Below, piece after piece: positions 709-13,579 of a stretch of 13,579 nucleotides of DNA (position 1 is the first letter of the stretch; each line of letters begins with the position of its first letter). A model generated the notes under the pieces. It saw only the letters and a program-made list of their open reading frames with translations, was not told the origin of the DNA and did no database searches. This DNA comes from a virus (lineage: Duplodnaviria; Heunggongvirae; Uroviricota; Caudoviricetes). The DNA lies in IMG/VR virus record IMGVR_UViG_2695420792_000010, positions 1 through 13,579 of that record. One strand, written 5' to 3'. Made by a program: the position numbers and the translations under genes.

Positions 709-773
709 GCTGTAACGCCCGGCTTCATCCGGATTTACTGAGGGCAAAAATACAGAATCCGGTGTCAATAAGC

Positions 774-1676
774 TTACCTTCGGTTAGCGTATGTATTTTT
801 CCAGTAATACGTCGTGTCACCACAAATCCACGGCACATCTGCAGCACTGCCACCATGGCACTGCGCGTTAAACACGGAGAGGTCAGCACGAAACTGTGTC
901 AGCATGGCTGTAAACAGCGCAGGTTGCTGTGCGTGGGTGGCGGCGCTCATGTCAAACTCTCCCTGCATCCAGCACACCGCCAGCAACACATTTTTCGGGT
1001 TCTTCTGTAATGCAGCTTTAGTGCGCGCAATCAGGTCCTGATATAACGGTTTACCCACACCCCAGCGCGCCGAATCCTGGCTGGCCCCCGTGTCCGCACT
1101 GAATGTCCCCTCAGCGCCCTGGGTGAATGCAGAACCACCACGACAGCATGGTACCAGCAGGATCCCCGCGTTATTCGGGATATACGGAAGCAGTTTTTTG
1201 GCAATATGTAAGCCCTGGCCGACACAGCCGTACTGCCCTTTGCTCAGGTCTGCCTTCGGATGATTCAGCGTACTCATATCCTGCACATCATGCAGGCAGT
1301 GGTCGGCCGGAATAATATCGTTATATCTGCAGGCAGCCCCACCCGGCGTCACTGTACTGCGGCGCGCCAGCTGTTTAATGCGCGGATCCGGAGCATCGTA
1401 TGAATCCGGCAGCGGAAGCCCTTCACCGTAAGCCATGGCATTGGACTGCCCGGCCAGTACGATGACGTAGTACCAATCCGGCTCAGTTGCACCACTGACC
1501 ACCACATCACCTTCTGCTGTAATCGCCTGCATCAGAGTATAAGGGGTTATGGCCACCGGACTACCAAACGGCTGCCAGCCCTCTTTCAGTTTATGTGTCA
1601 GCTTTTCCGCAAGATCTGATGGCGACGCCGCCCTGACAACATCATAGTGTTTAAATTCCATGGTTCTTTCCACCAT
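774..1676 (-). CDS. Prophage NanS-p-like sialate O-acetylesterase (DUF1737-like N-terminus plus SASA/GDSL-like esterase domain), short relative to typical NanS-p
   Basis: 300-aa ORF. N-terminus MEFKHYDVVRAASPSDLAEKLTHKLKEGWQPFG resembles the DUF1737 domain of prophage NanS-p; VIVLAGQSNAMAYGEG carries the GQSN esterase motif. ATG at 1676 has no Shine-Dalgarno; the ATG at 1661 is preceded by GGTGGAAAG and may be the true start. Stop TAA at 774-776. The family's C-terminal domain appears to be missing (recollection of family architecture). Confidence 0.7.
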   Translation of the reverse strand: MVERTMEFKHYDVVRAASPSDLAEKLTHKLKEGWQPFGSPVAITPYTLMQAITAEGDVVVSGATEPDWYYVIVLAGQSNAMAYGEGLPLPDSYDAPDPRIKQLARRSTVTPGGAACRYNDIIPADHCLHDVQDMSTLNHPKADLSKGQYGCVGQGLHIAKKLLPYIPNNAGILLVPCCRGGSAFTQGAEGTFSADTGASQDSARWGVGKPLYQDLIARTKAALQKNPKNVLLAVCWMQGEFDMSAATHAQQPALFTAMLTQFRADLSVFNAQCHGGSAADVPWICGDTTYYWKNTYANRR

Positions 1677-1920
1677 CTGAAAAATAATTCTTTAAAATAC
1701 CTGACATGTAATACAGAAAAAACACAAAACCATACCTTAAATAAAAACCTGATTATCAAGCAGATATGCATGGATAAACTACAAGACGAGATATAAACCA
1801 CCCTGTATTTAAATAAACAATAAACAACATCAGAAAAATAATTCTGCTCTATGGTTTAATTCAAAAATATCATTTATACTTTTCAGAACATCACCAGCAA
1901 GGCATAAACAAGGAAAGTAA

Positions 1921-2256
1921 ATGAAGTGGATTGTGATTGATACAGTTATCCAGCCATCATGCGGAATATCTTTTTCAGTCATATGGAGTAAAATAAAATT
2001 AATAATCTGGTATCAATCGGATGCTTTCTTACCTCCTGAAAGTATATTTACACTGACTCACACAGGTATCATGCTCAATAACAAAGTGCTACCTGTAACC
2101 ATTTACAACATAGTACCATTCAATAAAACATTCTGGAATTTAATCAAAAACAGCCAGGAATGCCCTACAAATACAGATAACGTATTGAATGAATGCTTTA
2201 ATAACCGTTGCACTCTGCAAATATGTCCTTATGGGCTAAAACAACAAAATCCATAA
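1921..2256 (+). CDS. Hypothetical AT-rich ORF (111 aa), no recognisable family
   Basis: ATG preceded by AAGGAAAG Shine-Dalgarno-like sequence 4 nt upstream; AT-rich codon usage; Ile/Asn-rich product with 6 Cys. Could be chance translation of AT-rich DNA. Confidence 0.2.
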
Positions 2257-2280
2257 GGAGTTTACTCACATCTGACAAAA

Positions 2281-2311
2281 TCAATATAAACAGCCCCTCC
2301 GGAGAGGGGCT
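2281..2311. terminator. GC-rich hairpin (8-bp perfect stem AGCCCCTC / GAGGGGCT, loop CGGA); U-run follows on the minus strand
   Basis: Stem 2292-2299 pairs with 2304-2311. On the minus strand the hairpin is followed by TTTATATTGATTTT; on the plus strand there is no U-run. Lies 36 nt after the stop of the 1921..2256 ORF. Confidence 0.35.
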
Positions 2312-2703
2312 GGAGAGTGGCGCTATGTGCCATTGCATGGTGCCGAGTGCCTCCCGGTGAATTCAGTACCAGCACCTGAATCCGCGATTATCCCATATAC
2401 CTACTCGCTGATTGCCCCTCCGCACAGGGGGATTCACCATGCCAGTTTCTTTTAACAAACTCCCCGCAAACCAGACAACAGTCAACCGCCTGAATTGTGA
2501 AGTATTTAAAAATTTCTCCCGCTAACTGATACCCGGCTAACAGTCTGGCGTTTTCTTTTTCAGCAACGGGAAAGCAACAACCACCACACCCGCCACCAGC
2601 ACACCGTCAGCCAGCACTGACATTATCCGGCTGCTGCAATGCCATTCACAAAAACAGTAAGCAATCACTTTTTACCGTAACAGGTGATAATCCAGATATG
2701 TAT

Positions 2704-3030
2704 CTACCCCAGATGAGTAATCCGAAGTTCATCCATACCACAGGTCCTGGCTATTCTGTTGTACTCCTGAACAAGAGCAAATAATTCTGAATTAGCAACC
2801 ATGAACTCATCGCAAACCCTCTGTATAGCATCACTATTCAGAATAATAACGTCTCTTCCCGAAAGACGATCAGGAGTACAGAACAAAACTGTCAAACGGC
2901 TGAAGGCCTTTGCTCGTGCTGCATTGACTATATCAATACGCTGCCTAAGGATGAAACACCCCGACGCCTCATCAATATTCACTCTACCCACACCATATGA
3001 ATGATAAATATTTAATGCTGAAAAAACCAT
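2704..3030 (-). CDS. Hypothetical AT-rich ORF (about 108 aa from the first ATG; ORF track gives a TTG start at 3057)
   Basis: Open frame ending ...ELRITHLG with stop TAG at 2704; no Shine-Dalgarno identified; no family recognised. May be a gene fragment. Confidence 0.15.
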   Translation of the reverse strand: MVFSALNIYHSYGVGRVNIDEASGCFILRQRIDIVNAARAKAFSRLTVLFCTPDRLSGRDVIILNSDAIQRVCDEFMVANSELFALVQEYNRIARTCGMDELRITHLG

Positions 3031-3167
3031 TAGACCGTATAACAAATATTCAATCAATACTTAACAGAACTTTTATTTTTGACAAACATATAATATTTTC
3101 AACAATATCCTGAGCCAGGTATATTTCAGTATAAGGCTCTGCCGGAAGGAATCTGGAAGAATGAATA

Positions 3168-3244
3168 TGGCGCGCTGTACTGGATTCGAACCAGTGACCG
3201 ATTGCTTAGAAGGCAATTGCTCTGTCCGGCTGAGCTAACAACGC
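3168..3244 (-). tRNA. tRNA-Arg, anticodon UCU (reads AGA), phage-borne
   Basis: Reverse complement GCGTTGTTAGCTCAGCCGGACAGAGCAATTGCCTTCTAAGCAATCGGTCACTGGTTCGAATCCAGTACAGCGCGCCA. 7-bp acceptor stem (one G-U pair), anticodon stem ATTGC/GCAAT with loop CTTCTAA (anticodon TCT), T-arm GGTTCGAATCC, encoded CCA. Confidence 0.85.
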
Positions 3245-3345
3245 TGAATACCGATAATGGACCGCCATCGGGGACCCGCCCCCCGCACCAACAACCCTGT
3301 TATCGTGTCGTCTGCTCTTCCTGATAAGCTAATGGCGGTTTGTGA

Positions 3346-3421
3346 TGGTGGCCCTTGCTGGATTTGAACCAGCGACCTGGCGATTATGAGTCGCTCGCTC
3401 TCACCACTGAGCTAAAGGGCC
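3346..3421 (-). tRNA. tRNA with CAU anticodon (tRNA-Ile2 lysidine type or tRNA-Met), phage-borne
   Basis: Reverse complement GGCCCTTTAGCTCAGTGGTGAGAGCGAGCGACTCATAATCGCCAGGTCGCTGGTTCAAATCCAGCAAGGGCCACCA. Perfect 7-bp acceptor stem GGCCCTT/AAGGGCC, anticodon loop CTCATAA, T-arm GGTTCAAATCC, encoded CCA. Resembles E. coli ileX-type tRNA (recollection). Confidence 0.85.
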
Positions 3422-3454
3422 GGGAGCAGAATAATAACGATCCGTAATTAATTT

Positions 3455-3489
3455 CGCAATAAAAAACCCGCTCAGCGGCGGGTTGTAGA
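3455..3489 (-). terminator. Intrinsic terminator (tR'-like) downstream of the late promoter
   Basis: Stem CCCGC (3467-3471) / GCGGG (3478-3482), extendable by flanking pairs; followed on the minus strand by TTTTTT (complement of 3461-3466). Confidence 0.55.
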
Positions 3490-3531
3490 AACTCTTCTAA
3501 CGTCAGGCATAAAACGCCCATCGTTATGACG

Positions 3532-3559
3532 AATTTACCACAGATTCCGGAAAAATCAA
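3532..3559 (-). promoter_or_regulatory. pR'-like late promoter immediately downstream of the Q gene
   Basis: Minus strand reads TTGATT (-35, complement of 3554-3559), 16-nt spacer ending TGG (extended -10 TG), TAAATT (-10, complement of 3532-3537). Predicted start near 3525 gives a ~65-nt RNA ending at the terminator. Confidence 0.45.
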
Positions 3560-3564
3560 CCTTG

Positions 3565-4386
3565 TTACCTAGTTACCTTTTTTAACTGCCGCTCAGCCCA
3601 TGCTTCTTCAATATCAAACCGGGTCACCAGCGCATCATAAAATTTCTTAACTGTTTTTTCCCATGACGCGCGTGTTATCTGGTTTGTCACCTCGCATATA
3701 GCATTAAATGCCTCCGTTGATGGTAGTCTTTCATAGCCACGACCACCACAACGCTGGCAGTCTCTGATAACAGGCATACCACGTTTTACCGACTCTTCAC
3801 GATGAATGGCGACACCACGCCCACGGCAATCCTTACAGCCGGTGGAAACCTCACCCTTTCCGCCACACTCCGGACAGGCAACTTTTACCACCTCCCTGAC
3901 TTTTTTCCATTCTTCCCAGTAAGACGGATACACACCTTTCGTACACTTTGCCCATACCGGCGGCTTACCATCCGGATACTGGACCTTGTTTGTAAAAACT
4001 ATGCTTTCAATAAATTTTTCCCCATAGCAACAAGGGCACTGCTTTTTACTCGCTGCGCTGCGGGCATAATCCTCAAAAGCGTACGAAGCCATAATGCGCA
4101 TCACTACCGGTTTTATTTCTGCCGGAAGTTTTCTCAACGCCGCCACACGATCGCACCGACTGAGTGCATAATCTGCCAGTAATTCTGTTGCCCGCGCCCT
4201 GTCATTCATACTGATGCCCATTTTCCCCAGGAACGCAGAAAAACCCATCTCAGCCCGATTCTGTGTCATGCCCTGCGCGGCCATCACATCAGTGATACTC
4301 AGCGCATCTTTTGACGTTGAGGCCGATGCATCGGTCAGGCCAGGGGATTTTGGGGAGTAGTATTTCGGTAAATCTTCCAGTTTCAT
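3565..4386 (-). CDS. Late-gene antitermination protein Q (phage 82/Qin QuuQ-type)
   Basis: 273-aa ORF with ATG start. N-terminus LPKYYSPKSPGLTDASASTSKDALSITDVMAAQGM resembles the QuuQ-type Q family as recalled. Multiple CxxC motifs (CPCC, CPECGGKG, CKDCRGRG, CQRCGGRG) consistent with Zn-binding. Position just upstream of the late promoter, terminator and tRNAs fits. Confidence 0.75.
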   Translation of the reverse strand: MKLEDLPKYYSPKSPGLTDASASTSKDALSITDVMAAQGMTQNRAEMGFSAFLGKMGISMNDRARATELLADYALSRCDRVAALRKLPAEIKPVVMRIMASYAFEDYARSAASKKQCPCCYGEKFIESIVFTNKVQYPDGKPPVWAKCTKGVYPSYWEEWKKVREVVKVACPECGGKGEVSTGCKDCRGRGVAIHREESVKRGMPVIRDCQRCGGRGYERLPSTEAFNAICEVTNQITRASWEKTVKKFYDALVTRFDIEEAWAERQLKKVTR

Positions 4387-4400
4387 TTTTTGACCTGCTC

Positions 4401-4757
4401 TTAATGCATTATGGGGTAAATCTTCACCCCCAGACGTCCACCAGATACTGGCTGACCACGAACGATATTGATTTCATCAAACTGCTCATCGTCCATTAAC
4501 ACTCCCGCATGCGTCAGCGCATCCAGCGGTGCTTTCAGAATATTGTCCAGGTCACGACGGCGCTTATCCGGTGGCTCTGCAGTGATTCTGATTGCCAGCC
4601 TTCCGGACAGGTTTAATTTCAGTCGCTGCTGGCGAACAATAAGCGCCACATCCCGGCGATAACGCTCACCGGCTTTTGATACAAAATATGTGCTGCCACG
4701 ACGTCGCCAGTAGGTGTTCACCGTCGGCGGATAAGGCAAAACAAACTCTATACGCAT
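4401..4757 (-). CDS. rusA: Holliday junction resolvase RusA
   Basis: 118 aa; PPTVNTYWRRRGSTYFVSKAGERYRRDV and DKRRRDLDNILKAPLDALTHAGVLMDDEQ match the RusA family pattern (recollection of E. coli RusA). AAGAGG Shine-Dalgarno 6 nt before the ATG. Confidence 0.85.
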   Translation of the reverse strand: MRIEFVLPYPPTVNTYWRRRGSTYFVSKAGERYRRDVALIVRQQRLKLNLSGRLAIRITAEPPDKRRRDLDNILKAPLDALTHAGVLMDDEQFDEINIVRGQPVSGGRLGVKIYPIMH

Positions 4758-4769
4758 CAGTAACCTCTT

Positions 4770-5819
4770 TTACCCGAGCACGCCGGTTGCAAAGGCGTGC
4801 TCAAGAAAACGAAAAATTAAATCAACCTGAGAACCATGCTTTTCTTCGAACGCCAGCGGATCCGCATGAAGCTCGTTGTGATGCTCCCGACACAGCGGTA
4901 GCGTGAAAATATCGTGAGATTTTGTCCCCATTCCGCCCTGACCATGACCAATCAGGTGATGGGGATCGTCGGCTGGCTTACCACAACACGCACACGGCTG
5001 TGTCTTCACCCAGCGTGTGTATTTCTCGTTAACCCAGCGGCGACGTTTAGGTCGTTTCATGAAAGATTCCGGAGACTCAGGATCAACGGCAATACTGACC
5101 ACCGTCTTTTCCTGTGGTGGGTTCTGTTGCTGGTGGACGTGAGGCAATAACGCAATATTTTTTGTGCGCTGCTTCAGTATGCTGGTGGCTGTCTGCTCTC
5201 CCGGTATGATGTCGCTTTCACTGTACACAGAGCGAATTTTTTCCGCACGCAACCCCAGAGAACGACGTAATACTGCCTCCGGAAGCGCGTCCGCCACCTG
5301 ATTGCAGACCGCCCACCAGGATAATTCAGCCAGCGATAATTCCCGCTCCTGTGTGCCATTCATTGCGTGACGAATGACGTCAATCATCCATGCTGACAAG
5401 TTTTGGTGAGCAAGTTGCTCAAGTGATTCGGAGGTCTGGTCACGCAGCTGGTTGTCGCAGTGCCAGCATAACACCATTGCGCCGGTACCATAACGGTGAA
5501 TGACGGTTTCACTGTGGTGATAATCGCCGTGTGGCCACTGGCAGGATTTAACATGGCGCAGTAACCAGTCAGACAATGCGCCAGCGCCACCAGCAGCACG
5601 AATCACTCGTTCGTCGCTGAAAAATGGCAGTAATGATTTATCCTCCGCCAGCGGCTGGCGAACGGCAGGAACGACCCCGGACGACAGATTACGCATGCTT
5701 TTCGGTTCCGGCTCCACCAGTACCCGGGTATTGTGGAATACCGGCATGGATTCACGGCCCGGCTTAACGATCACCAGCCCGAGTTCCGGTACCAGAACAG
5801 GTCGAAGTAATACCCGCAC
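4770..5819 (-). CDS. DUF968-family phage protein (YdfU-like) with C-terminal HNH/Zn-finger-like motif
   Basis: 349-aa ORF, GTG start at 5819 one nt after the upstream stop. C-terminal CACCGKPADDPHHLIGHG...LCREHHNELH resembles an HNH-like motif. Same length as Qin YdfU as I recall. Confidence 0.65.
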   Translation of the reverse strand: MRVLLRPVLVPELGLVIVKPGRESMPVFHNTRVLVEPEPKSMRNLSSGVVPAVRQPLAEDKSLLPFFSDERVIRAAGGAGALSDWLLRHVKSCQWPHGDYHHSETVIHRYGTGAMVLCWHCDNQLRDQTSESLEQLAHQNLSAWMIDVIRHAMNGTQERELSLAELSWWAVCNQVADALPEAVLRRSLGLRAEKIRSVYSESDIIPGEQTATSILKQRTKNIALLPHVHQQQNPPQEKTVVSIAVDPESPESFMKRPKRRRWVNEKYTRWVKTQPCACCGKPADDPHHLIGHGQGGMGTKSHDIFTLPLCREHHNELHADPLAFEEKHGSQVDLIFRFLEHAFATGVLG

Positions 5820-5820
5820 G

Positions 5821-6099
5821 TTACCTCCAGATGCGTTGCTGGAATGTGCGGGACGGACGCGGTGGGCGTTCGGAGTAAGGAAGCCTGACGGAGATTATCC
5901 AGTGACGGTAGTCGAGGCTAAGGGCTTTTTTAACCTCGTATCCGCGCCTGCGGTAACACTGAATTATCCATTCAGCCTGCTCTTCAGTGCATGGCGGATG
6001 CTGGAACCAGTCCGATTTGAATGCATGAAAACGCCGTCCGCACCTGCTGGCAAAGAGGGCAGAATCATCAGAATTGTGTAATTTGGTATCGTGCGCCAT
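5821..6099 (-). CDS. Hypothetical phage early-region protein (92 aa from first ATG; ORF track extends to a TTG at 6210)
   Basis: ORF ending ...RTFQQRIWR with stop TAA at 5821-5823; first ATG at 6099 gives MAHDTKLHNSDD...; no family confidently recognised. Confidence 0.4.
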   Translation of the reverse strand: MAHDTKLHNSDDSALFASRCGRRFHAFKSDWFQHPPCTEEQAEWIIQCYRRRGYEVKKALSLDYRHWIISVRLPYSERPPRPSRTFQQRIWR

Positions 6100-6364
6100 C
6101 GGTTGTCTCTGCTGGCGCAGCAGGTGCCAGTTGTTCAGGCTGGCGTATAAAGTATAAATAAACTGGTTCCAGTGTAAAGCCCCTACATTAATGGAATAAA
6201 AGTCAAACAACAGATTGCTGGGATAAACACAACGCTTATTATTAAAAGCGATTAGATAAATTAAATTTTAATGTTATGCAATTTTACCAGATCACCATAA
6301 CATCTCGTTTGAAACCACCGAAACAACAACCATATCAATATTGATTATGTTAAAGTGAGTAAAT

Positions 6365-6451
6365 ATGGAAAACAACAAATCTGCACATTACGCTCCTTTT
6401 TTATCTGTGATACTTTTTGTTTTATGCTGTGTGTGGGCATTATTTTTATAA
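6365..6451 (+). CDS. Small hydrophobic ORF (28 aa: MENNKSAHYAPFLSVILFVLCCVWALFL), convergent with hok
   Basis: ATG at 6365 with weak GAG Shine-Dalgarno (AAGTGAGTAAAT ATG); stop TAA 6449-6451. Single predicted transmembrane-like segment. Not in the ORF track because it is under 60 aa. Confidence 0.2.
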   Translation: MENNKSAHYAPFLSVILFVLCCVWALFL

Positions 6452-6460
6452 AAATATTTA

Positions 6461-6489
6461 CAGATAAAATAAACCCGCCGAAGCGGGTT
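6461..6489 (-). terminator. Intrinsic terminator of the hok transcript
   Basis: Stem AACCCGC (6472-6478) / GCGGGTT (6483-6489), loop CGAA; followed on the minus strand by TATTTTAT (complement of 6461-6471). Confidence 0.5.
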
Positions 6490-6557
6490 AAGCGCGGGTG
6501 CGTTGAGGATGCCTGACACATCAGAGGCGGCGAGGGATTTCTCCCTCGCCAGGTCTC

Positions 6558-6713
6558 TTACTCCTCAGGTTCGTAAGCTGTGAAGACAGCGACCTCCGTC
6601 TGGCCGGTTCGGATTCGTACCTCGCAGAGGTCTTTCCTCGTTACCAGTGCCGTCACTATGACGGTTAAACAGATGACGATAAGGGCGATTAACATCGCCT
6701 TTTGCTGCTTCAT
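6558..6713 (-). CDS. hok: Hok/Gef-family type I toxin (HokD/RelF-like small membrane toxin)
   Basis: 51-aa product MKQQKAMLIALIVICLTVIVTALVTRKDLCEVRIRTGQTEVAVFTAYEPEE matches the Hok/Gef family and, as I recall, HokD (RelF) almost exactly. AAGGAGA Shine-Dalgarno 8 nt upstream. An in-frame upstream ATG at 6770 would add 19 codons (MSHKCRLASYVPKGKEKQA). Confidence 0.85.
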   Translation of the reverse strand: MKQQKAMLIALIVICLTVIVTALVTRKDLCEVRIRTGQTEVAVFTAYEPEE

Positions 6714-7270
6714 AGCCTGCTTCTCCTTGCCTTTCGGCACGTAAGAGGCTAACCTACATTTGTGAGACATAGATTGGGCCTCAGATTAATGTTAAGCGTC
6801 TTGCAGGACGCGTAATGTTAACTGGGGCTTTTCTCTATCTGCCTTTTGGTGTTCATGCCTGAGGCAGATAGCCTCAAGCACCCGCAGCAATTCTAACTAT
6901 CCAATAGATCAATGCCAACTTCTTTTCCTGCAACATCTCTCATCATAAGTGACCAAAATTCATCCAATCAGCACAAAAGAAACATTTAAAGCGTGAATGC
7001 TACCGAACGTTCATTTCAATTACATCGTTTTGATTTTTAACAGTTTTTACCTCAACAAATCAAATGGCATTAGCATTCATCATGGAAGAAAGACTGATAA
7101 AAATGATCATTTTCAATGACTTATGATCACACCGGGTATTGCCAAGTCATTCCTTTTACGCCAGGATACCCACAAGTGAGTAGTCGAGGAGAGTTTGCCA
7201 ATTTTTGCGATATAAATTTCAATGTCCGAAGAACCATTAATTGTTAATTGATTCTGTATAAGGTATTAAC

Positions 7271-8368
7271 ATGACAATTTCATATATTCCTATTCTGAAA
7301 GCGAAACGTTCTGAGTTATCAGCTTTATCGCAGCTATTCATTGAAAAGAAATCAAAAATTTTGCCATTACTCGAAATTGAACCAGTGCCAATTGACCCTG
7401 ATTCAGGTATTGCCTTAAAGAGTTATAACGAGACTCTTATAGAGTTCGGAAAGAAAGTCTCAAAATCTTGCTCAGATATGCAAGGTGTTTATATTGATGG
7501 ATTATTAATTGAAGAGCATTTTATTTCTCCTGAAGATCATTACCCTATAATAAATGCGGTTAATCAAGTTAGAGATATGGGGATAAGAGTTATTCCTGTC
7601 AGTTCACCAACTCGCCCATCTAACTATAAAAGAGCGATTGATGAATTAATGCAGAATGAAATATGCTTGAGATTAACCACGTTAGATCTGGTTAACCCAC
7701 AATTAATAACGCATTACATTAATCATCTGGGAATTCCTTTATCAAATATTGATATAATTATTGACTTAAGAGATGAGTTAACCGAGGATAAACTTAATTC
7801 CGGCGAACTATATACTTTGGCAATGGGATTGATAAACAATCTGGCGCACCTCAATGAATACAGAAAAGTGATTCTTTCTGGGGGTTCATTTCCTACAGAT
7901 CTCAGTGATATTTCTGTTGGTCTATATTCTCAACCTCGAATCGAGTGGATTTTATGGCAGAGTTTAATGAATAGAAAAGAACTTGCCAGAAATGTGATTT
8001 ATAGTGATTATGGAGTACAGCACCCCGACTTTAATAGGCTTTCGACGCGATTCCCTAGCGTATCTGCCAGCGTCAGATACTCTGGAGATAATGACTTTTG
8101 GGTATTTCGAGGAAGAGTAGCTAATCGCTTTGGTTATGAACAATATGGTAAACATAGTGAGGATATTCTTGCTCATCGAGAATATTCAGGGCCTACATTC
8201 TGTGCGGGAGATAGAGACATAGAATATTATGCAAACGAGTATCAAGCCTACAAAGCCAATCCCTCTGGTAACTATAAATTTGGTAGCCCAGAGGTATGGC
8301 GTAGGATTGGGCAAAACCATCACATAACTAAGGTTGTTGAGCAACTCGCCACTCTTTACGGGCTTTAA
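7271..8368 (+). CDS. Uncharacterised 365-aa protein, first gene of the AT-rich convergent cassette (possibly the database family annotated as 'beta protein / sce7725')
   Basis: Clean ATG at 7271 with AAGG 9 nt upstream; stop TAA 8366-8368; uninterrupted 365 codons; strongly AT-rich, unlike the flanking phage genes. The N-terminal pattern MTISYIPILKAKRSELSAL reminds me of the 'beta protein' family, but this is unverified. Confidence 0.7.
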   Translation: MTISYIPILKAKRSELSALSQLFIEKKSKILPLLEIEPVPIDPDSGIALKSYNETLIEFGKKVSKSCSDMQGVYIDGLLIEEHFISPEDHYPIINAVNQVRDMGIRVIPVSSPTRPSNYKRAIDELMQNEICLRLTTLDLVNPQLITHYINHLGIPLSNIDIIIDLRDELTEDKLNSGELYTLAMGLINNLAHLNEYRKVILSGGSFPTDLSDISVGLYSQPRIEWILWQSLMNRKELARNVIYSDYGVQHPDFNRLSTRFPSVSASVRYSGDNDFWVFRGRVANRFGYEQYGKHSEDILAHREYSGPTFCAGDRDIEYYANEYQAYKANPSGNYKFGSPEVWRRIGQNHHITKVVEQLATLYGL

Positions 8369-8906
8369 GTTTAACTCGAACAGCTTCACGAAGCTCGCCA
8401 ACATCCATACTATTGGCGAGTTTTGACCATAAGACGCGTTTAGGTTTATTTTTCAAATTCTGTAGCTCCCCTACATCACTTAATAGGGAAAGCAATTCAT
8501 CTTTCCAAAGAAGCATTGTTAAGGAAAGTTTGTCCACTTGTGGATTCAACTTGCTAGTTCGAATTGTTTTTAAATGGATACCTTGCCGTGCACCTTGCGT
8601 AACTTGCTTTATCCCCCACCATGATGGAACTATGCTTAAAGCATCATAAAGATGGCAATCAGAGACAACCAAAGTTACTTTATCCATCACTGATGAGTAA
8701 TGTTGCACCTGCGCTGGTAATCTGAGCAAGTTATCACTCTTGCTCTTCAACTCATAACCATGTATAAGCCCATTGATCACTGCTATATCAGCTCTGCTAG
8801 CCCCTAGATTCATCGTAAACTCATCAATGATTAGGGTGTCAGGATCTTTATGATGATCTCTCAGAATCTTGGCATGCACAGCCTTTCTTACATCAATGTC
8901 TCTCAT
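8328..8906 (-). CDS. Uncharacterised 192-aa protein with N-terminal PD-(D/E)xK nuclease-like motif (possibly 'sce7726 family'), second gene of the AT-rich cassette
   Basis: ATG at 8906, stop TAG at 8328-8330. Motif LIIDEF...RADIAVINGLIHGYELKS fits the restriction-endonuclease fold pattern (D40 ... E52-x-K54, preceded by D28/E29). AT-rich. Weak Shine-Dalgarno. Confidence 0.7.
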   Translation of the reverse strand: MRDIDVRKAVHAKILRDHHKDPDTLIIDEFTMNLGASRADIAVINGLIHGYELKSKSDNLLRLPAQVQHYSSVMDKVTLVVSDCHLYDALSIVPSWWGIKQVTQGARQGIHLKTIRTSKLNPQVDKLSLTMLLWKDELLSLLSDVGELQNLKNKPKRVLWSKLANSMDVGELREAVRVKLKARKEWRVAQQP

Positions 8907-9211
8907 ACCATAGTTGCGCTTTCATCGACTCTCTCAAGCCATGATTCTATATCATGGTTCGCATGAATGCCATTTGATATGACCAGTGGTTAAACATTGC
9001 ACAGAAAAGTGGATGTGTATTTTAACAAAAGCAATGACGGCTAACCATGTTGGTATGTCGATAAAATGTTTCAACGTAAGCATTATCTGTTCCGCCCTTT
9101 CAGACGGCCTCCTGATGTTCTGAGGGTGCAGAATCCCTCCGGTTAAGGATTTAATAAAAATCGTTTCTGATTTAAATCTTCAGTATTTAGTTGTTAGTCG
9201 GTTTATAGCCT

Positions 9212-9523
9212 TTATGCTTCGGCCTTATTTCTCAGCCATACACAAACCGGGCCATCTTCGGTGTCATGTATTGAACCAATAAACCATCCATTGCCCTCTG
9301 GTCGTTCCGGTTCCCATGCAGAAATATCAGCATCACACGCATCAAGGTCAGCACATCCTTCATCTCTGAAGCAGAGGACGTATTGAAGATTATTTTCCTC
9401 CATCCAGGCGTTAGACTCTTCCGTTGAAATATATTCCCGACCGTCACAGAATTTCTCATATTCAGGATGTGCCCAGCAGCCATATTCATCACGTTCTACT
9501 GGTATTTCTTTAATTTCATTCAT
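9212..9523 (-). CDS. Hypothetical acidic phage protein (103 aa)
   Basis: ATG at 9523 with GGGAGA Shine-Dalgarno; start overlaps the stop of the upstream ORF by 8 nt; Cys/Asp/Glu-rich; family not recognised. Confidence 0.5.
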   Translation of the reverse strand: MNEIKEIPVERDEYGCWAHPEYEKFCDGREYISTEESNAWMEENNLQYVLCFRDEGCADLDACDADISAWEPERPEGNGWFIGSIHDTEDGPVCVWLRNKAEA

Positions 9524-9770
9524 TTCTGTTCTCCCACGTTTTCAGACTTTCACCACAGAACGGACAAAATGAAACCCGAACTGGTAATTTAGAAAATTCA
9601 CCGGAACGCAACATCACAAAATCAGGACCGCGAGTTAAACTCTCATTCCAGATTTTGTATATCAGCAGACCTTTTCGCATCGTGTATTCAGCATCATGCT
9701 CAAGGGACTTTGCCAGTGCTGCGCATGGTTCTATCTTGTTGCCATTAACCTGGCATTTTGATTCACTCAC
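9516..9770 (-). CDS. Hypothetical phage protein (84 aa) with C-terminal CPFCG zinc-ribbon-like motif
   Basis: GTG start at 9770 overlapping the upstream stop as GTGA (translational coupling); no internal ATG near the 5' end. Confidence 0.45.
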   Translation of the reverse strand: MSESKCQVNGNKIEPCAALAKSLEHDAEYTMRKGLLIYKIWNESLTRGPDFVMLRSGEFSKLPVRVSFCPFCGESLKTWENRNE

Positions 9771-10189
9771 CGCACCTCCTCCTCAAAATTCCCCTGATAA
9801 AACGCCAGTACGCGCTGCATAGCTTCACTCTTCCGGCACTCGCGACAGATTATGTTTAGGCGCCTGTCGTAGCGGCGTATTTCGCCGTCTGGTAACGACC
9901 AGATAAGGTCCGGATCAACTACTGCAGGTTTCTTCACCTTTGTCCTTGAGAGTTTTTTGCGGGCATTTTGCCAGTCCTTACGAGCCTGTTCAGACGGGAA
10001 TAACCCGTAACCAGAGTTGTATACATCGCCACTTGCAACCAGCTCTCTGGCGAGAACGCTGATCAGATATCTTGTCGCACCTGTTTTAGCTTCCAGTTGT
10101 CGTAACGTCTCGCGACCGCTCTGGCGCACAAGTTCGACCACCTGCCCTTTAATTTTTTCCCGCTCTTCCTGTGTAAAAACTTTTACCAC
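9767..10189 (-). CDS. Hypothetical basic phage protein (140 aa) downstream of the replication initiator
   Basis: GTG start at 10189 preceded by a perfect AAGGAGG Shine-Dalgarno; Lys/Arg-rich; CRECRK motif; family not recognised. Confidence 0.5.
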   Translation of the reverse strand: MVKVFTQEEREKIKGQVVELVRQSGRETLRQLEAKTGATRYLISVLARELVASGDVYNSGYGLFPSEQARKDWQNARKKLSRTKVKKPAVVDPDLIWSLPDGEIRRYDRRLNIICRECRKSEAMQRVLAFYQGNFEEEVR

Positions 10190-10229
10190 AAGTCCTCCTT
10201 AAAATTACCTCATGACCTGAAATCAACAC

Positions 10230-11300
10230 TTATCCCCTGAAACCAAGCGGAATTTCTGTATCAGGTTCAGAAATATGATTCACACAACGCTGGTTGTTCG
10301 TGCCGCTTACCGGGAGCAACCAGGGGTTCTCAAAATTCCGGTCCGGTCCAAAAAACGTCGTCGCTCGCTGAACAAATTCCGTTCCCGTTTTCCCGGTAGC
10401 CGCCAGGTATCTTGCGTAACGCCTCACGCCATCCAGCATGGCCTCTGGTGGCACCCCCTCGCGTAATCTGGCCTTCCAGGCACTGAAAGCGGATTTCTTC
10501 GGATTTGCCCCGGCACGCAACGGGTACTCCCGCCAGACCTGTTCGAACACATCCGGATAATCCACTCGTCCCACAGACTGCCCGGTTTTTTCCGGGACTA
10601 CCCGATCGGCTTCCCGCTGAATGGCGGAATCGGCTTCAGGCTGCTGCAGTTGGTGTGATTGCTCCGGCCTTGCGGTCATCACCTGCTGCACAGCGCCCGA
10701 ATCGGCTTTCAGCGCATACGCTGAATCGGCTTCCGGTGTCGTGCCTGCTGGCTGACCAGGATTGACGGTCTGAACATCCCCTGCCTGGTTCGTGGCATTT
10801 TTTACGCCATGGACCATAGTGTTTTGATCTTCTTGATCTGTATCTTTATCTGTATCTTTATCTGTCGTGACTTGTCGTGACATGTGCGTGACATTTCGTG
10901 ACGCGCCGTGACAATCGCCATTTTGTTCCCGCTTTCTTTCCCTCTCTCGCTGCGCCCTCTTGCGCTCTGCAGGAGATTTTGCGGTTTGCGAAATATTGCC
11001 GTTGTCCTCTTTAAGCACCTGGCGTTTTTCCCATCCAGTGATTAAATCACCATCAAGTACCCGCCCCTGCATCGTCTGCAAAATTGAATCAATTACCTCT
11101 TCTGTCACGTCGAGCGCACTTGCCAAATCTTCTGTCGTGACATCAATGTGACCTCGCGTGACATTTCGTGACGCGCTTACCAATAGGTGGATATACACTG
11201 CCATCACTGTTGCAATTGGCTGCCCTGACACCCTGGCAATTGTTCGCCACTTAGGGTCATTTGGCATGTCATGCCATAATCTGAGCCAGGCGTTAGCCAT
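10230..11300 (-). CDS. Phage replication initiator / replisome-organizer (O-like) protein containing the origin iterons
   Basis: ATG at 11300 preceded by AGAGGTGAG (a GTG two codons upstream at 11306 is the ORF-track start). N-terminus ANAWLRLWHDMPNDPKWRTIARVSGQPIATVMAVYIHLL resembles the phage replisome-organizer N-terminal domain (recollection). Internal direct-repeat arrays typical of an origin inside an O gene. Confidence 0.65.
   Translation of the reverse strand: MANAWLRLWHDMPNDPKWRTIARVSGQPIATVMAVYIHLLVSASRNVTRGHIDVTTEDLASALDVTEEVIDSILQTMQGRVLDGDLITGWEKRQVLKEDNGNISQTAKSPAERKRAQRERERKREQNGDCHGASRNVTHMSRQVTTDKDTDKDTDQEDQNTMVHGVKNATNQAGDVQTVNPGQPAGTTPEADSAYALKADSGAVQQVMTARPEQSHQLQQPEADSAIQREADRVVPEKTGQSVGRVDYPDVFEQVWREYPLRAGANPKKSAFSAWKARLREGVPPEAMLDGVRRYARYLAATGKTGTEFVQRATTFFGPDRNFENPWLLPVSGTNNQRCVNHISEPDTEIPLGFRG
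10839..10862. repeat. Tandem 12-bp AT-rich repeat (TGTATCTTTATC x2) adjacent to the iteron array, encoding DKDTDKDT in the O-like linker
   Basis: Exact tandem duplication at 10839-10850 and 10851-10862, preceded by TGATCT-TCT-TGATCT. Confidence 0.6.
10862..10912. repeat. Iteron array 1: five direct CGTGAC repeats at 10-11-bp spacing (candidate origin)
   Basis: CGTGAC at 10866, 10876, 10887, 10897 and 10907, roughly one helical turn apart, next to an AT-rich tract. Confidence 0.55.
11104..11172. repeat. Iteron array 2: (C/T)GTGAC repeats at about 10-bp spacing plus one inverted copy
   Basis: CGTGAC at 11136, 11157 and 11167; TGTGAC at 11147; inverted GTCACG at 11104-11109. The 21-bp string GCGTGACATTTCGTGACGCGC is identical at 10886-10906 and 11156-11176. 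Confidence 0.5.
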
Positions 11301-11371
11301 ACTCACCTCTTTTGATACCGAATCTTTTTACTCACAAATTGCCGGAAGTGATCTGGTATGAATATCGCGAG

Positions 11372-11797
11372 TCAATGCACAGCCACAATATTTCCTGCAG
11401 GGCCACCACGATTCATCTGGTTGAAACCAGCGATCGCCACTGCGACAAAATCATCAGCGTCTCTCACCAGTCGTTCCCGCGTCTCCACTAGTTCCCGAAA
11501 ATAGGCTGAGCTATGGCTGCGCATTCGGGCCACCAGCAGAGGCGGCATTGCTTTTTCGATAGCTGGTAACAACGCCTGAATTTTTTTAACCGCATCAGGG
11601 GTGTCTTTCTCCACCCAGCGGAAAATTTTCTGAGTATTGCGAGCCAGGGCTTCCGGATGGCTGTCGTCATACAGTTCCGGGAACGTCATTCCCAGCTCGA
11701 AATACGCTTTGGTAATTTTCGCAGCCGGTACTTTTTCGCCGTCCGGATGCGCCCAGGCATTCATCGCCATGCGGATATGTTCATGCTTGATTTTCAT
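11372..11797 (-). CDS. ydaT: YdaT-like protein (CII-position regulator / toxin YdaT family)
   Basis: 141 aa starting MKIKHEHIRMAMNAWAHPDGEK and ending ...NIVAVH, resembling Rac YdaT as recalled. ATG at 11797 preceded by AAGGGGGG. ORF-track start at 11869 lacks a Shine-Dalgarno and overlaps the cro-like gene. Confidence 0.7.
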   Translation of the reverse strand: MKIKHEHIRMAMNAWAHPDGEKVPAAKITKAYFELGMTFPELYDDSHPEALARNTQKIFRWVEKDTPDAVKKIQALLPAIEKAMPPLLVARMRSHSSAYFRELVETRERLVRDADDFVAVAIAGFNQMNRGGPAGNIVAVH

Positions 11798-12023
11798 GAA
11801 TCCCCCCTTGGTTAGAAGGCGGATTATGATCAGAACCGGGAATGACAACCGTCGGTATGTGTAACTCATATTTGAGCGCCCCGGCAGTGACTGCCTGAAT
11901 TAGCAACGCCCATTTCCACGGAACCTCTTCCCCCCACATGCTGACTGTGGTTTTTGACGTTCCTAGAGCTGCGGCTGTTTTAACAACTCCGCCAAAATAG
12001 CCTAATACTTCTGATTTTTTCAT
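11781..12023 (-). CDS. Cro-like small HTH regulator (DicC/YdaS family)
   Basis: 80 aa MKKSEVLGYFGGVVKTAAALGTSKTTVSMWGEEVP...; HTH-like segment; ATG at 12023 preceded by GGAG; divergent from the CI-like gene across an operator-bearing intergenic region. Confidence 0.7.
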   Translation of the reverse strand: MKKSEVLGYFGGVVKTAAALGTSKTTVSMWGEEVPWKWALLIQAVTAGALKYELHIPTVVIPGSDHNPPSNQGGIHENQA

Positions 12024-12045
12024 GAGTCGCTCCATAAAACTGAAC

Positions 12046-12081
12046 GCCAAAAGTTTAATAATCAAAACCAAAGAAAGTCAA
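12046..12081 (-). promoter_or_regulatory. pR-like promoter for the cro-like/ydaT/O operon
   Basis: Minus strand shows TTGACT (-35, complement of 12076-12081) with candidate -10 hexamers TATTAA or TTAAAC at 15-17-nt spacing; overlaps operator-like site 12053-12068. The -10 assignment is uncertain. Confidence 0.35.
12053..12068. promoter_or_regulatory. Operator-like 16-bp site GTTTAATAATCAAAAC (OR region)
   Basis: One of three related 16-bp sites with inverted ends GTTT.../...AAAC; shares AATCAAAAC with the site at 12099-12114. Confidence 0.4.
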
Positions 12082-12098
12082 GAAACAAAACCATCTGT

Positions 12099-12114
12099 GT
12101 TTTAAAATCAAAAC
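12099..12114. promoter_or_regulatory. Operator-like 16-bp site GTTTTAAAATCAAAAC abutting the CI-like start codon
   Basis: Site ends 1 nt before the ATG at 12115; inverted ends GTTTT/AAAAC. Confidence 0.4.
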
Positions 12115-12753
12115 ATGAGCAAGCAAACAATATCTGAACGCATAACCCAACGTATGCATGCGCTAAACCTGAAAGGCAAAGACCTTGTCAATGCCACTGG
12201 CGCATCAAAAGGCTCCGTAAGTCAATGGATGAACGGTGGAGGAGCGCCGTCCTCGCGTTACATAAGTTCACTGGCAAAAATATTGAAAGTAAACGAAAAT
12301 TGGCTTCTTAATGGAGGAGAGTTAAATACAGGTGATTCGCTTGATCTATCTTTACCGCCGATAAAAACGGTTCCGCTACTATCACTTCAGCAGGCAGCAA
12401 GCTGGAGTGATTATATGAAAAATTCCTCAATAACCTCTTGTGTGCAGCTTGTCGGAGAAATCCCGGCCAATACCTTTGCAGTTGTTCTAGAGAGTGACAG
12501 TATGTCAACATCTGGTGGGGGAGTTTCCATCCCAAATGGTTCAACAGTTTTTGTTGATCCCGATCGAACCGTACAACCAGGAAATATTGTCCTTGCCTTA
12601 CCCAAAGGGACCACAACACCTGTCATTCGTAAACTGGAGATAGAAGGGCCGGATATTCTTTTAGTCCCCACGAATCCTCGCTACCCTTCAATTATGCTGG
12701 ATGATCTATCTTGCATATTGGGCGTATGCTTTAAAATTCAACAAGATATTTAA
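12115..12753 (+). CDS. CI-like phage repressor (N-terminal XRE-type HTH plus C-terminal S24 LexA-like autopeptidase domain)
   Basis: 212 aa. HTH region KGKDLVNATGASKGSVSQWMNGG; S24 motifs ESDSMS (Ser nucleophile) and VIRKL (Lys). Divergent from the cro-like gene. No Shine-Dalgarno before the ATG (possibly leaderless, as for lambda cI from pRM). Confidence 0.85.
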   Translation: MSKQTISERITQRMHALNLKGKDLVNATGASKGSVSQWMNGGGAPSSRYISSLAKILKVNENWLLNGGELNTGDSLDLSLPPIKTVPLLSLQQAASWSDYMKNSSITSCVQLVGEIPANTFAVVLESDSMSTSGGGVSIPNGSTVFVDPDRTVQPGNIVLALPKGTTTPVIRKLEIEGPDILLVPTNPRYPSIMLDDLSCILGVCFKIQQDI

Positions 12754-12820
12754 CCGACCTCATCTATTTGATTAACTGTATGCCATCGTGGTGATGGCTT
12801 AACAGCTGCCTGCTTAAAAT

Positions 12821-12836
12821 GTTTTGATAAAAAAAC
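12821..12836. promoter_or_regulatory. Operator-like 16-bp site GTTTTGATAAAAAAAC (OL region) immediately upstream of the pL-like -35
   Basis: Same GTTTT...AAAAC inverted-end architecture as the OR sites; a related palindrome GAAAAGTTCATTTTTC (12845-12860) lies in the promoter spacer. Confidence 0.35.
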
Positions 12837-12837
12837 A

Positions 12838-12866
12838 TTGACCTGAAAAGTTCATTTTTCTAAACT
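12838..12866 (+). promoter_or_regulatory. pL-like promoter for the ydfA/ydfB/ydfC-like operon
   Basis: TTGACC (12838-12843), 17-nt spacer, TAAACT (12861-12866). Confidence 0.45.
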
Positions 12867-13045
12867 TCATTCATTCCCTCTCCCCACCCCACAGAATGCA
12901 GGGCAATACTTCGAGTTACCAGGCAGTGGTCAGGGGTTAAGTAGCCAGCCCGAGGCGTAAGAACATGACGGCAGGGTTCAACTTTAATAACTATGCAGCA
13001 GGTTTTTGTTCCGCTACCCCGGCGTTAAGGGGAAATGAGGTCAGC

Positions 13046-13201
13046 ATGGATACTATCGATCTTGACAACAGCGAATCTCTGGTATGTGGCGTGTTCCCCA
13101 ACCAGGACGGTACGTTCACCGCGATGACGTATACCAAAAGCAAAACGTTTAAAACCGAAAATGGTGCCCGTCGCTGGCTGGAAAGAAACTCAGGTGAGTG
13201 A
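13046..13201 (+). CDS. ydfA: YdfA-like small protein (DUF1391-type), 51 aa
   Basis: MDTIDLDNSESLVCGVFPNQDGTFTAMTYTKSKTFKTENGARRWLERNSGE; ATG at 13046 with GAGGT Shine-Dalgarno; the ORF-track upstream extension (start 12965) has no Shine-Dalgarno. Resembles Qin YdfA as recalled. Confidence 0.65.
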   Translation: MDTIDLDNSESLVCGVFPNQDGTFTAMTYTKSKTFKTENGARRWLERNSGE

Positions 13202-13202
13202 T

Positions 13203-13331
13203 ATGGATTTCGACACAATCATGGAAAAGGCTTACGAAGAATACTTCGAAGGCCTTGCCGAAGGCGAAGAAGCTCTCAGCTTCAGTGAGTTTAAACAGGC
13301 GCTTTCCAGTTCGGCAAAATCTAACGGCTGA
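13203..13331 (+). CDS. ydfB: YdfB-like small acidic protein, 42 aa (not in the ORF track, under 60 aa)
   Basis: ATG at 13203 preceded by AGGTGAG; MDFDTIMEKAYEEYFEGLAEGEEALSFSEFKQALSSSAKSNG; stop TGA 13329-13331. Resembles Qin YdfB as recalled. Confidence 0.6.
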   Translation: MDFDTIMEKAYEEYFEGLAEGEEALSFSEFKQALSSSAKSNG

Positions 13332-13360
13332 TAAGCGAAACAGCACCGCGAGGAATCAGT

Positions 13361-13579
13361 ATGCAGAAACGAGAACCCGTCATCATCGCGCCAGACTATA
13401 CCGATGATGAACTTTATGAGTGGATGCACCAGAAAATTAATGCAGCGCAGGATCTGAAATGGGCCAATGAAGCCAGGGCTAAGCAGGCTGAAAATCTGTC
13501 CGCTCTGGAGCAGGATATCACTAATCTGGAAAAAGCAGCGGCATTAAGCATTGCCAGAATGATTACATACCCGCGTTAA
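13361..13579 (+). CDS. ydfC: YdfC-like protein, 72 aa
   Basis: ATG preceded by GAGGAA; MQKREPVIIAPDYTDDELYEWMHQKINAAQDLKWANEARAKQAENLSALEQDITNLEKAAALSIARMITYPR; stop TAA is the last codon of the window. Resembles Qin YdfC as recalled. Confidence 0.7.
   Translation: MQKREPVIIAPDYTDDELYEWMHQKINAAQDLKWANEARAKQAENLSALEQDITNLEKAAALSIARMITYPR

Follow-up and report, generated by a model that had tools for sequence, protein, structure and literature searches.

Two co-varying iteron arrays inside the initiator gene of a lambdoid Escherichia coli prophage: a probable replication origin and a likely accessory site

In several phages, the replication origin is made of iterons located inside the gene of the initiator itself, as in lambda (gene O), P22 (gene 18) and phage L (also gene 18), the latter having short repeats of about 11 base pairs (bp) (PMC8022706). 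In SPP1, the organizer G38P binds to direct repeats within its own gene (gene 38), beside an AT-rich unwinding element (PMC6316719), and TP901-1 also has an intragenic iteron origin, in orf13 (PMC8965321). Here we describe a comparable arrangement in a 13,579-nucleotide (nt) stretch of viral DNA, positions 1 to 13,579 of the record IMGVR_UViG_2695420792_000010, referred to below as the window. Its replication initiator gene contains two arrays of one short repeat, one between the two domains of the protein and the other in the codons of the N-terminal domain. On comparative grounds, this segment is probably the replication origin of a lambdoid E. coli prophage, located inside its own initiator gene, with the second array in an accessory or regulatory role. 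The parts of the module are the following.

10230-11300, minus strand: replication initiator gene ("phage replisome organizer"), 356 amino acids, ATG at 11300, identified from its open reading frame (ORF), its translation and phrog_3729
11016-11300, minus strand: N-terminal domain, codons 1-95, predicted from an AlphaFold2 model to be winged-helix-like and presumed to bind the iterons
11136-11172, minus strand: N-domain array (N-array), codons 43-55 (ASRNVTRGHIDVT), with four GTCAC(G/A) iterons spaced 10/11 bp apart, proposed as an accessory, regulatory binding cluster
11104-11109, plus strand: inverted iteron copy, GACGTGACA on the coding strand, codons 64-66, 27 bp transcriptionally downstream of the N-array
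10866-10912, minus strand: linker array (L-array), five GTCACG iterons at 10/11-bp spacing, codons ~130-145 between the N- and C-terminal domains, proposed as the core initiator-binding site
10886-10906, unstranded: 21-bp segment GCGTGACATTTCGTGACGCGC, the same as at 11156-11176 and so common to both arrays
10820-10865, unstranded: AT-rich tract that contains three GATAAAGATACA units and is purine-rich on its coding strand, proposed as the DNA-unwinding element
10233-10619, minus strand: C-terminal domain, amino acids ~228-356, presumed to recruit the host helicase or primosome

A first-pass annotation, made from the letters alone, had reported both arrays, the inverted copy, an AT-rich flank with a 12-bp tandem repeat and a 21-bp segment shared by the two arrays, and each of these is indeed present. 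On the plus strand, CGTGAC starts at 10866, 10876, 10887, 10897 and 10907 (spacings of 10, 11, 10 and 10 bp) in the linker array, and at 11136, 11157 and 11167 in the N-array, where a TGTGAC variant occupies 11147. The gene being on the minus strand, the coding-strand form of the repeat is GTCACG, and the AT tract is downstream of the linker array. In Tandem Repeats Finder, 10863-10913 comes out as an array of period 10 and 10831-10865 as one of period 12 (2.9 copies, 95% matches), and guanine-cytosine (GC) content is 27.5% at 10820-10859 versus about 53% in the remainder of the gene. The 21-bp segment spans two iterons and the spacer between them. There are 13 CGTGAC sites in the window, a number reached by none of 200 dinucleotide-preserving shuffles (mean 4.36, maximum 10). 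Nine of them are packed into the 307 bp that hold the arrays and the inverted copy (10866-11172), the sites at 510, 4551, 5366 and 5439 are isolated, and no second origin-like CGTGAC cluster exists elsewhere in the 13.6-kb window. The AT tract holds two GATC sites (10826 and 10835), and its T-rich strand loosely resembles the 13-mers of oriC.

The core of this arrangement recalls lambda, P22 and L. The tandem repeats lie mid-gene, in the linker between the N-terminal domain, predicted to end at about residue 95, and the C-terminal domain, which starts at about residue 228; this linker is of low complexity. The AT tract comes immediately downstream along early-right transcription, that is, on the promoter-distal side of the repeats as in lambdoid origins, and the setting is that of cI, cro and cII. 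As in phage L, the repeats are short, about 11 bp. Other traits are unlike lambda. The initiator has no sequence homology to lambda O, no gene for a P- or DnaC-like partner follows, and the iterons have asymmetric cores of 6-7 bp (TGTCACG) at a period of 10-11 bp, whereas lambda units measure ~19-20 bp; no ~18-20-bp iterons with internal dyad symmetry are found here. Own-gene direct repeats beside an AT-rich element are equally what is seen with SPP1 G38P, TP901-1 ORF13 and Tuc2009 Rep2009. The core is a member of this known class of intragenic iteron origins, and as an origin it is ordinary. What the descriptions of lambda, P22, L and SPP1 used for comparison do not contain is a second, co-varying array in the codons of the DNA-binding domain. 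SPP1 does have a second site, oriR, but that is a second origin ~13 kb away with its own unwinding element, whereas the second array of the window lies ~260 bp off, without an AT-rich partner, and is written into the codons of the domain.

The identity of the gene is consistent with such a role. The 356-amino-acid protein matches phrog_3729 ("replication initiation protein") over its full length (E=1e-255), the Prokaryotic Genome Annotation Pipeline (PGAP) names it "phage replisome organizer", and genes 97-99.6% identical to it in seven E. coli phage records are called protein O, primosomal protein I or replisome organizer. The initial label of "O-like replication gene" therefore holds in one sense only: the PHROG match and the operon make the protein a functional analogue of lambda O, but by Pfam it is not a homologue.

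The repeats have to be considered as DNA and as codons at the same time. Their 10/11-bp spacing puts the hexamer in all three frames, in which it is read as SR, VT, CH or GH. Synonymous codons were compared among 24 homologues having GTCACG-class arrays, from Enterobacterales, Pseudomonas, Aeromonas, Bordetella, Chromobacterium, Acidovorax and others, a 23-sequence subset of which averages 70% nucleotide identity. Codons within the hexamers are close to fixed: S44 is TCA in 23/24, V47 GTC in 24/24, T48 ACG in 24/24, G50 GGT in 24/24, H51 CAC in 23/23, V54 GTC in 24/24, and T55 ACG in 23/24. In the inverted copy, all 21 sequences with a valine at codon 65 write it as GTG. The spacer codon R49, on the other hand, is written in four different ways, and other four- to six-fold degenerate codons have pairwise identities of 0.2-0.4. 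Overall, synonymous conservation is 0.96 in the hexamers versus 0.39 elsewhere (Mann-Whitney p=1.9e-6, kinship ignored). The N-array stays in register (gene nt 128-165) across relatives associated with Enterobacterales, Pseudomonas, Aeromonas, Bordetella and Chromobacterium, and the hexamer codon choice is fixed in GC-rich and AT-rich hosts alike. Pseudomonas phage phita81A and Aeromonas phage pAEv1818 (~70% nucleotide identity) have kept both arrays, the inverted copy and the GATAAAGAT tract, and their linker peptides differ although the DNA hexamers persist. These codon comparisons show selection on the N-array at the DNA level.

They also bear on a simpler explanation, namely that the repeats are the by-product of a repeated or conserved peptide (SRNVT...) under protein-level selection alone. 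As this explanation would have it, members of the GTCACG class conserve ASRNVTRGHxDVT, and both regions of the protein contain SRNVT. The first-pass annotation had itself singled out amino-acid repeats with no conservation at the DNA level as the result that would count against an origin. However, the hexamer is read in three frames, synonymous sites are nearly invariant even at six- and four-fold degenerate codons and across hosts of opposite base composition, and linker peptides vary among homologues where the hexamers stay. In addition, the two arrays switch hexamer together (see below), and array-free homologues have an unrelated loop (AS..EERG....) at the position of the N-array. The peptide explanation is already contradicted by the codon data, and its probability is negligible.

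Co-variation of the two arrays was followed in a wider set of homologues. A scan of one genome per species gave 57 loci, and with the phage loci 59 genes were aligned to residue 1; the commonest NNNACG hexamer was then picked independently in the N region (nt 100-250) and in the linker region (nt 280-640). A linker array of at least three copies is present in 43 of the 59 loci, and in 39 of these the N region has at least two copies. The same hexamer is found in both regions in 36 of the 39: GTCACG in 22, CGAACG in seven, GTAACG in six, and GCAACG in one (Ralstonia phage Hennie). GTGACG occurs in both regions of L139. The N regions contain on average 2.91 copies per locus of the hexamer of their own class and 0.18 of those of other classes, and the total of own-class hexamers is 125 against 3.7 expected. 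Spacing is also conserved (10 bp 124 times, 11 bp 33 times), and inverted copies recur in the GTAACG, CGAACG and GCAACG classes. L111 (Erwinia phyllosphaerae, GTCACG) is closely related to L112 (Enterobacter hormaechei) and L108 (Pantoea), both GTAACG: the iterons are one base apart in every copy, direct or inverted, in both arrays. Both arrays switch hexamer together over at least five specificity classes and therefore track a single DNA-binding specificity. In the genes of L111, L112 and L108 (gene nt 90-460), an additional iteron extends over the beginning of the predicted recognition helix, where ERHV (GAA CGT CAC GTT) becomes ERNV or VSNV (CGT/AGT AAC GTT), so that a residue change coincides with the iteron change.

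What follows the linker array behaves differently. Across the 43 loci with a linker array, the 45 nt that follow the last iteron exceed the upstream region in AT content in 40 and in coding-strand purine content also in 40 (mean GC 0.36 versus 0.54, mean purine 0.73 versus 0.58). Within these 45 nt, a AGATAAAGA/GATACAGA-type motif is found in 36 of 43 loci, whatever the iteron class. Directly after the last linker iteron, the conserved motif reads (C/T)AGATAAAGA(T/A). Such constancy suggests that the tract may be recognised by a conserved factor, beyond being easy to melt. Because a class-invariant tract adjoins a class-specific array, which is the known anatomy of intragenic origins, the linker array and the tract are taken as the origin proper, and we are highly confident, from sequence comparison, that 10866-10912 and 10820-10865 together form its core. 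In the mechanism proposed, the winged-helix-like N-terminal domain would bind the five iterons, one per turn, on one face of the helix. The strand-asymmetric GATAAAGATACA tract would then melt, and the DnaT/DnaD-like C-terminal domain would bring in the host helicase. The lambda-style intragenic origin that had been put forward, iterons and AT tract within the initiator gene, is thus supported by gene identity, by codon constraint, and by the tract kept in 36 of 43 loci.

The protein segments that carry the arrays appear suited to this double duty. In the AlphaFold2 model of residues 1-125 (mean predicted local distance difference test score 81.8), helices span residues 4-14, 16-25, 29-45, 56-63 and 67-77, followed by a beta wing at 78-89. 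The N-array (codons 43-55) corresponds to the end of helix 3 and the loop preceding the helix-turn-helix (HTH), and the inverted copy (codons 64-66) to the turn of the HTH. According to this model, both arrays fall in segments able to tolerate a sequence dictated by the DNA. Array expansions in relatives from Escherichia albertii, Erwinia and Pseudomonas consist of whole iterons added as in-frame codons. The N-array has been enlarged in this way in L089 (E. albertii), L111, L112 and L121, from which it follows that the loop tolerates DNA-driven insertions; the L089 loop, ASRNVTTCHGVSLRGHIDVT, is seven amino acids (two iterons) longer than that of E. coli.

The family of the N-terminal domain is less easily named. 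Pfam assigns no family to the full protein at E<=0.01, and searches of Pfam, NCBIfam and PDB sequences with the protein and with a 38-sequence profile found no significant family or solved relative. At E<=1, the N-terminal domain and its homologues retrieve PF09681 (Phage_rep_org_N) and generic HTH families, with no lambda O family among the 25 families listed. PF09681 scores 15.9 bits against the N-terminal 125 amino acids (E=0.013), below its gathering cutoff of 23.3. The alignment nevertheless runs end to end (residues 5-123 against positions 1-119 of a 121-position model), and eight of the 38 homologues match the same family, the best at E=1e-4. This points to an initiator that is a distant relative of Phage_rep_org_N and not a demonstrated member. 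Foldseek comparison of the model with the PDB gives weak winged-helix matches only (CAP, MarR and GntR, E>0.1), and the name given to the fold expresses no more than a resemblance.

The N-array and its inverted copy very likely form a second cognate cluster, bound by the same N-terminal domain, to judge from their sequences. The role of this cluster is most likely accessory or regulatory, and not one in unwinding. No AT-rich tract accompanies it. Four lineages (L124, L130, L140 and L007) keep the linker array and have no N-array, a AGATAAAGA-type tract being demonstrably kept only in L124 among them. Finally, the N-array survives, its codon choices unchanged, in genes of GC-rich as well as AT-rich context in which the N-terminal domain is fused to an HNH nuclease and in which the linker array, the AT tract and the C-terminal domain are missing. 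For these three reasons it is regarded as an accessory element and not as an obligate half-origin. The first-pass annotation had left a choice between a bipartite origin and an additional autoregulatory site, and the comparative data favour the autoregulatory or accessory option and disfavour an obligatory half-origin. As to how regulation would work, the initiator could bind within its own coding region and feed back on its own synthesis as a transcription roadblock. The N-array could also, or instead, pair with the core array or titrate the initiator from it, as do the control iterons of P1 and F. We give this regulatory self-binding, by roadblock and/or by pairing or titration, somewhat less than an even chance. 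The main alternative, cooperative activation by looping or enhancement, is possible but doubtful, and there is at most a slim chance that the N-array has no function.

An obligate bipartite origin would require both arrays in cis, with bound initiators ~260 bp apart looping or wrapping the DNA so that the AT tract melts, after the manner of P4 ori/crr or of the two regions bound by SPP1 G38P. The arrays share hexamer, orientation and spacing and co-vary across classes, and two sites are again found in initiator genes of the DUF1376 type and in other, Phage_rep_org_N-like ones. The distances between N-array and L-array starts cluster at 250-282 bp in most loci, which is also in favour of this reading. 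Set against this are the full linker arrays with no N-array in L124 (which has the AT tract too), L130, L140 and L007, the HNH-fusion genes that keep the N-array and have neither linker array nor AT tract, and an overall distance that varies from 178 to 350 bp. We consider an obligate bipartite origin unlikely.

Conversely, the N-array might be a functionless duplicate of the linker array, kept similar to it by gene conversion and tolerated in a permissive loop. The exact 21-bp segment found in both arrays of the window is consistent with a recent conversion, the N-array does lie in a predicted loop, and some lineages do without it. Such a passive origin accords poorly with an in-register, near-absolute synonymous conservation over relatives that average 70% nucleotide identity. 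Moreover, the spacers of the two arrays differ in most homologues, so that conversion tracts would have to be the size of a hexamer, and the N-array persists in genes where a linker array, the would-be source of conversion, is missing. This explanation is very improbable.

The preferred reading, a core origin with a regulatory self-binding site, has its own difficulties. The homologues are phylogenetically related, so counts and p-values overstate the number of independent events, and the independent iteron switches number about four to six. The N-to-L distances range from 178 to 350 bp (median 260). A promoter scan of 10200-12200 gave three sigma-70-like matches against 1.7 expected, and two of these lie outside the gene; the sole match inside it (10888-10915) is weak (9/12), antisense (plus strand), and built of linker-array hexamers. 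Retention of the N-array in the HNH fusions could come from recombination with bona fide initiator genes and not from selection. Lastly, neither structural nor Pfam comparison gives a significant match for the N-terminal domain, and its DNA-binding role is therefore by analogy. Classical promoter-operator autoregulation is not supported, the scan having given nothing persuasive inside the gene; any feedback would consequently have to act by roadblock, titration or pairing.

Two separated clusters of one iteron are also known outside this class of origins. The plasmid prophage P1 and the plasmid F have control iteron arrays (incC/incA and incB/incC, respectively), and Rep dimers bind inverted repeats. 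As in these control loci, one iteron forms two clusters in the vicinity of the initiator gene of the window; the first adjoins the unwinding element, and the second does not but has an inverted copy. The second cluster, which has no AT tract, is under selection and may negatively control initiation. Unlike the control loci, it is inside the coding sequence and not beside the gene or across its promoter, there is no evident role in copy number, and the replicon is a lytic/prophage one. Since the module is rare on plasmids, the analogy with the P1 and F control loci is functional only. A plasmid or plasmid-prophage lifestyle with copy-number control was considered and set aside: PLSDB has only 11 matching records, most of which are large replicons of E. 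coli or records the size of a chromosome, with two Pseudomonas records of ~51 kb besides, and the context is that of an integrated prophage. In P4, the ori and crr sites are separated by kilobases and both are required, the initiator being a primase-helicase. Two separated clusters of one short initiator-binding repeat on one replicon are common to P4 and the present module, but the P4 initiator is unrelated, and here the second cluster is dispensable in some lineages. No description of the module or of a second intragenic array was found in the searchable literature, whose coverage does not include the primary reports on lactococcal TP901-1 and r1t, and partial precedent in lactococcal phages is possible. 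The conserved second array, co-varying with the first and located in the codons of the DNA-binding domain, is a real feature that is apparently undescribed.

The fusion genes deserve description in their own right. Eight of the 120 homologues listed are fusions of ~180 amino acids between the N-terminal domain and an HNH nuclease (P0040, P0058, P0060, P0071, P0092, P0095, P0099 and P0118). The corresponding loci are as follows.

L145, 4001-4546: HNH-fusion gene
L146, 399-935: HNH-fusion gene
L147, 2100-2660: HNH-fusion gene
L149, 3786-4322: HNH-fusion gene
L148, L152 and L153: further HNH-fusion loci

In several of them, the HNH part begins just past AERxR(E)R, the motif located ahead of the linker array in initiators. 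Wherever the downstream gene is readable, the fusion is directly upstream of an initiator of a different family or class: DUF1376-type in L146, L147, L148, L152 and L153, and Phage_rep_org_N-like in L149. The N-array iterons are kept in the fusions of L145, L146, L147/L148, L152 and L153, and not in that of L149. A methyltransferase-like gene is found just upstream of two fusions, in one case as a faint Pfam match.

By analogy with ICP1 Odn, in which a nuclease domain is fused to a copy of the origin-binding domain of an initiator (PMC8263062), these fusions are candidate origin-directed or homing nucleases. Odn combines a RepA_N domain with a T5orf172 nuclease and acts against a satellite (PMC8263062), whereas the present fusions join an unrelated N-terminal domain to HNH, belong to early operons of temperate phages directly upstream of a different initiator, and have a putative activity. 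Conflict between phages, more than the phage's own replication control, might in this case have shaped the N-array itself, which would be a decoy or a recognition site for nucleases that are directed at origins and contain the same N-terminal domain. The occurrence of the fusions in other phages, beside a different initiator gene, and the precedent of Odn as a documented origin-directed nuclease with a borrowed initiator domain (PMC8263062) are in keeping with this idea. It is hard to see, however, why a decoy would draw a nuclease to the phage's own essential gene, and the fusions themselves carry the N-array; we regard this origin of the array as extremely improbable.

The two-site layout is also seen in unrelated or distantly related initiator genes downstream of some of the fusions. 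In the DUF1376 genes of L146 (935-1639) and L147 (2660-3487), ACGTT(G/C)AAC occurs at gene nt ~140-165 and ~335-395, and the second site is followed by GATACAGATACA repeats (GATACA). In L149 (4322-4702), the N-terminal codons contain GTAAC copies, and the product, which is truncated, has QQCNVTETKSNVLDTDTDT at its end. A two-array design may therefore be general for initiators of the replisome-organizer type.

A bolder reading would unite these observations. Recognition sites would be written deliberately into the codons of the very domain that reads them, making a self-referential module in which the nascent or newly made N-terminal domain is caught on its own gene, giving both cis-action and feedback. 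Iterons at the two sites would evolve in concert with the loop and helix residues that they encode (for example His to Asn with C to A, L111 versus L112/L108). HNH nucleases would have captured the module exactly where the linker array and AT tract belong, and the resulting origin-directed and possibly homing nucleases would attack rival phages of the same class and spare their own gene. The two-site layout would finally be a general rule for several replisome-organizer families, including DUF1376. Taken as a whole, with capture, concerted evolution, HNH nucleases and generality, this reading is improbable.

Returning to the core origin and its accessory array, recruitment of the helicase is best considered from the C-terminal side of the initiator. 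This part of the protein matches phrog_1701 ("DnaD-like helicase loader") and phrog_9327 ("primosomal protein"), and residues 333-356 (10233-10304) weakly resemble the C-terminus of E. coli DnaT (NF002770 positions 156-179; PDB 6aep and 2ru8). This DnaT-like tail probably explains the annotations "primosomal protein I" and "DnaT-like", and it hints at a route by which the host primosome or helicase could be recruited in a module without a helicase-loader gene. No P- or DnaC-like partner gene directly follows the initiator in the window, nor do dedicated helicase loader and helicase genes, the next gene being DUF977/Ren-like. In relatives, the downstream helicase gene is annotated "replicative helicase" in Aeromonas and dnaB in Ralstonia, and in a Pseudomonas phage a downstream 1.8-kb ORF is annotated hypothetical. 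Shigella phage 75/02 Stx and phage phiSTEC1589-Stx1c (H8-H11) share only the C-terminal half of the gene (10230-10708, 82% nucleotide identity). These Stx phages must carry another N-terminal domain, which from the sequences is evidence of modular exchange at the linker/origin.

The surroundings of the initiator gene are those of a lambdoid early region.

12115-12753, plus strand: cI-like repressor gene
11781-12071, minus strand: P22-Cro-like gene
11372-11869, minus strand: cII/YdaT-like gene
9767-10189, minus strand: DUF977/Ren-like gene, next after the initiator

The order cI, cro, cII-like, initiator, DUF977 is that of an early-right operon, and RusA, a Q-like antiterminator and other nin-region genes are found farther on. 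The context is that of an integrated lambdoid prophage. Relatives of the initiator gene are spread across Proteobacteria, and in a scan of viral contigs the best 80 loci are all 100% identical E. coli copies.

Near-full-length copies of the gene are present in 1647 of 5426 complete E. coli genomes, yet its origin has apparently never been mapped. The AGATAAAGA tract and the iterons provide a simple signature for annotating origins in many prophages. The N-array is an unusually clear case of overlapping constraints, in which a regulatory DNA element overrides codon choice, and even amino acids, in a DNA-binding domain. The natural one-base switches between iterons (GTCACG, GTAACG, GTGACG, GCAACG and CGAACG) make a ready system for studying how initiator-origin specificity evolves, and they bear on the compatibility of co-resident prophage replicons. 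Should the fusions turn out to be nucleases directed at origins, the principle of Odn would hold for temperate phages of many hosts as well.

Some other genes of the window also draw attention. Between the replication and nin regions, in the opposite orientation, a 365-amino-acid gene (7271-8368, plus strand) matches Pfam Beta_protein (PF14350) and the PADLOC model PD-Lambda-2_C (E=6.5e-41). It may be a defence gene carried by the prophage; the other components of PD-Lambda-2 are apparently missing from the window. A neighbouring ORF of 192 amino acids (8328-8906, minus strand) matches the PADLOC "cll" model. In the nin region, a small ORF (6558-6770, minus strand) matches phrog_251 (MokW-like host killing), marking a hok/mok-type toxin locus.

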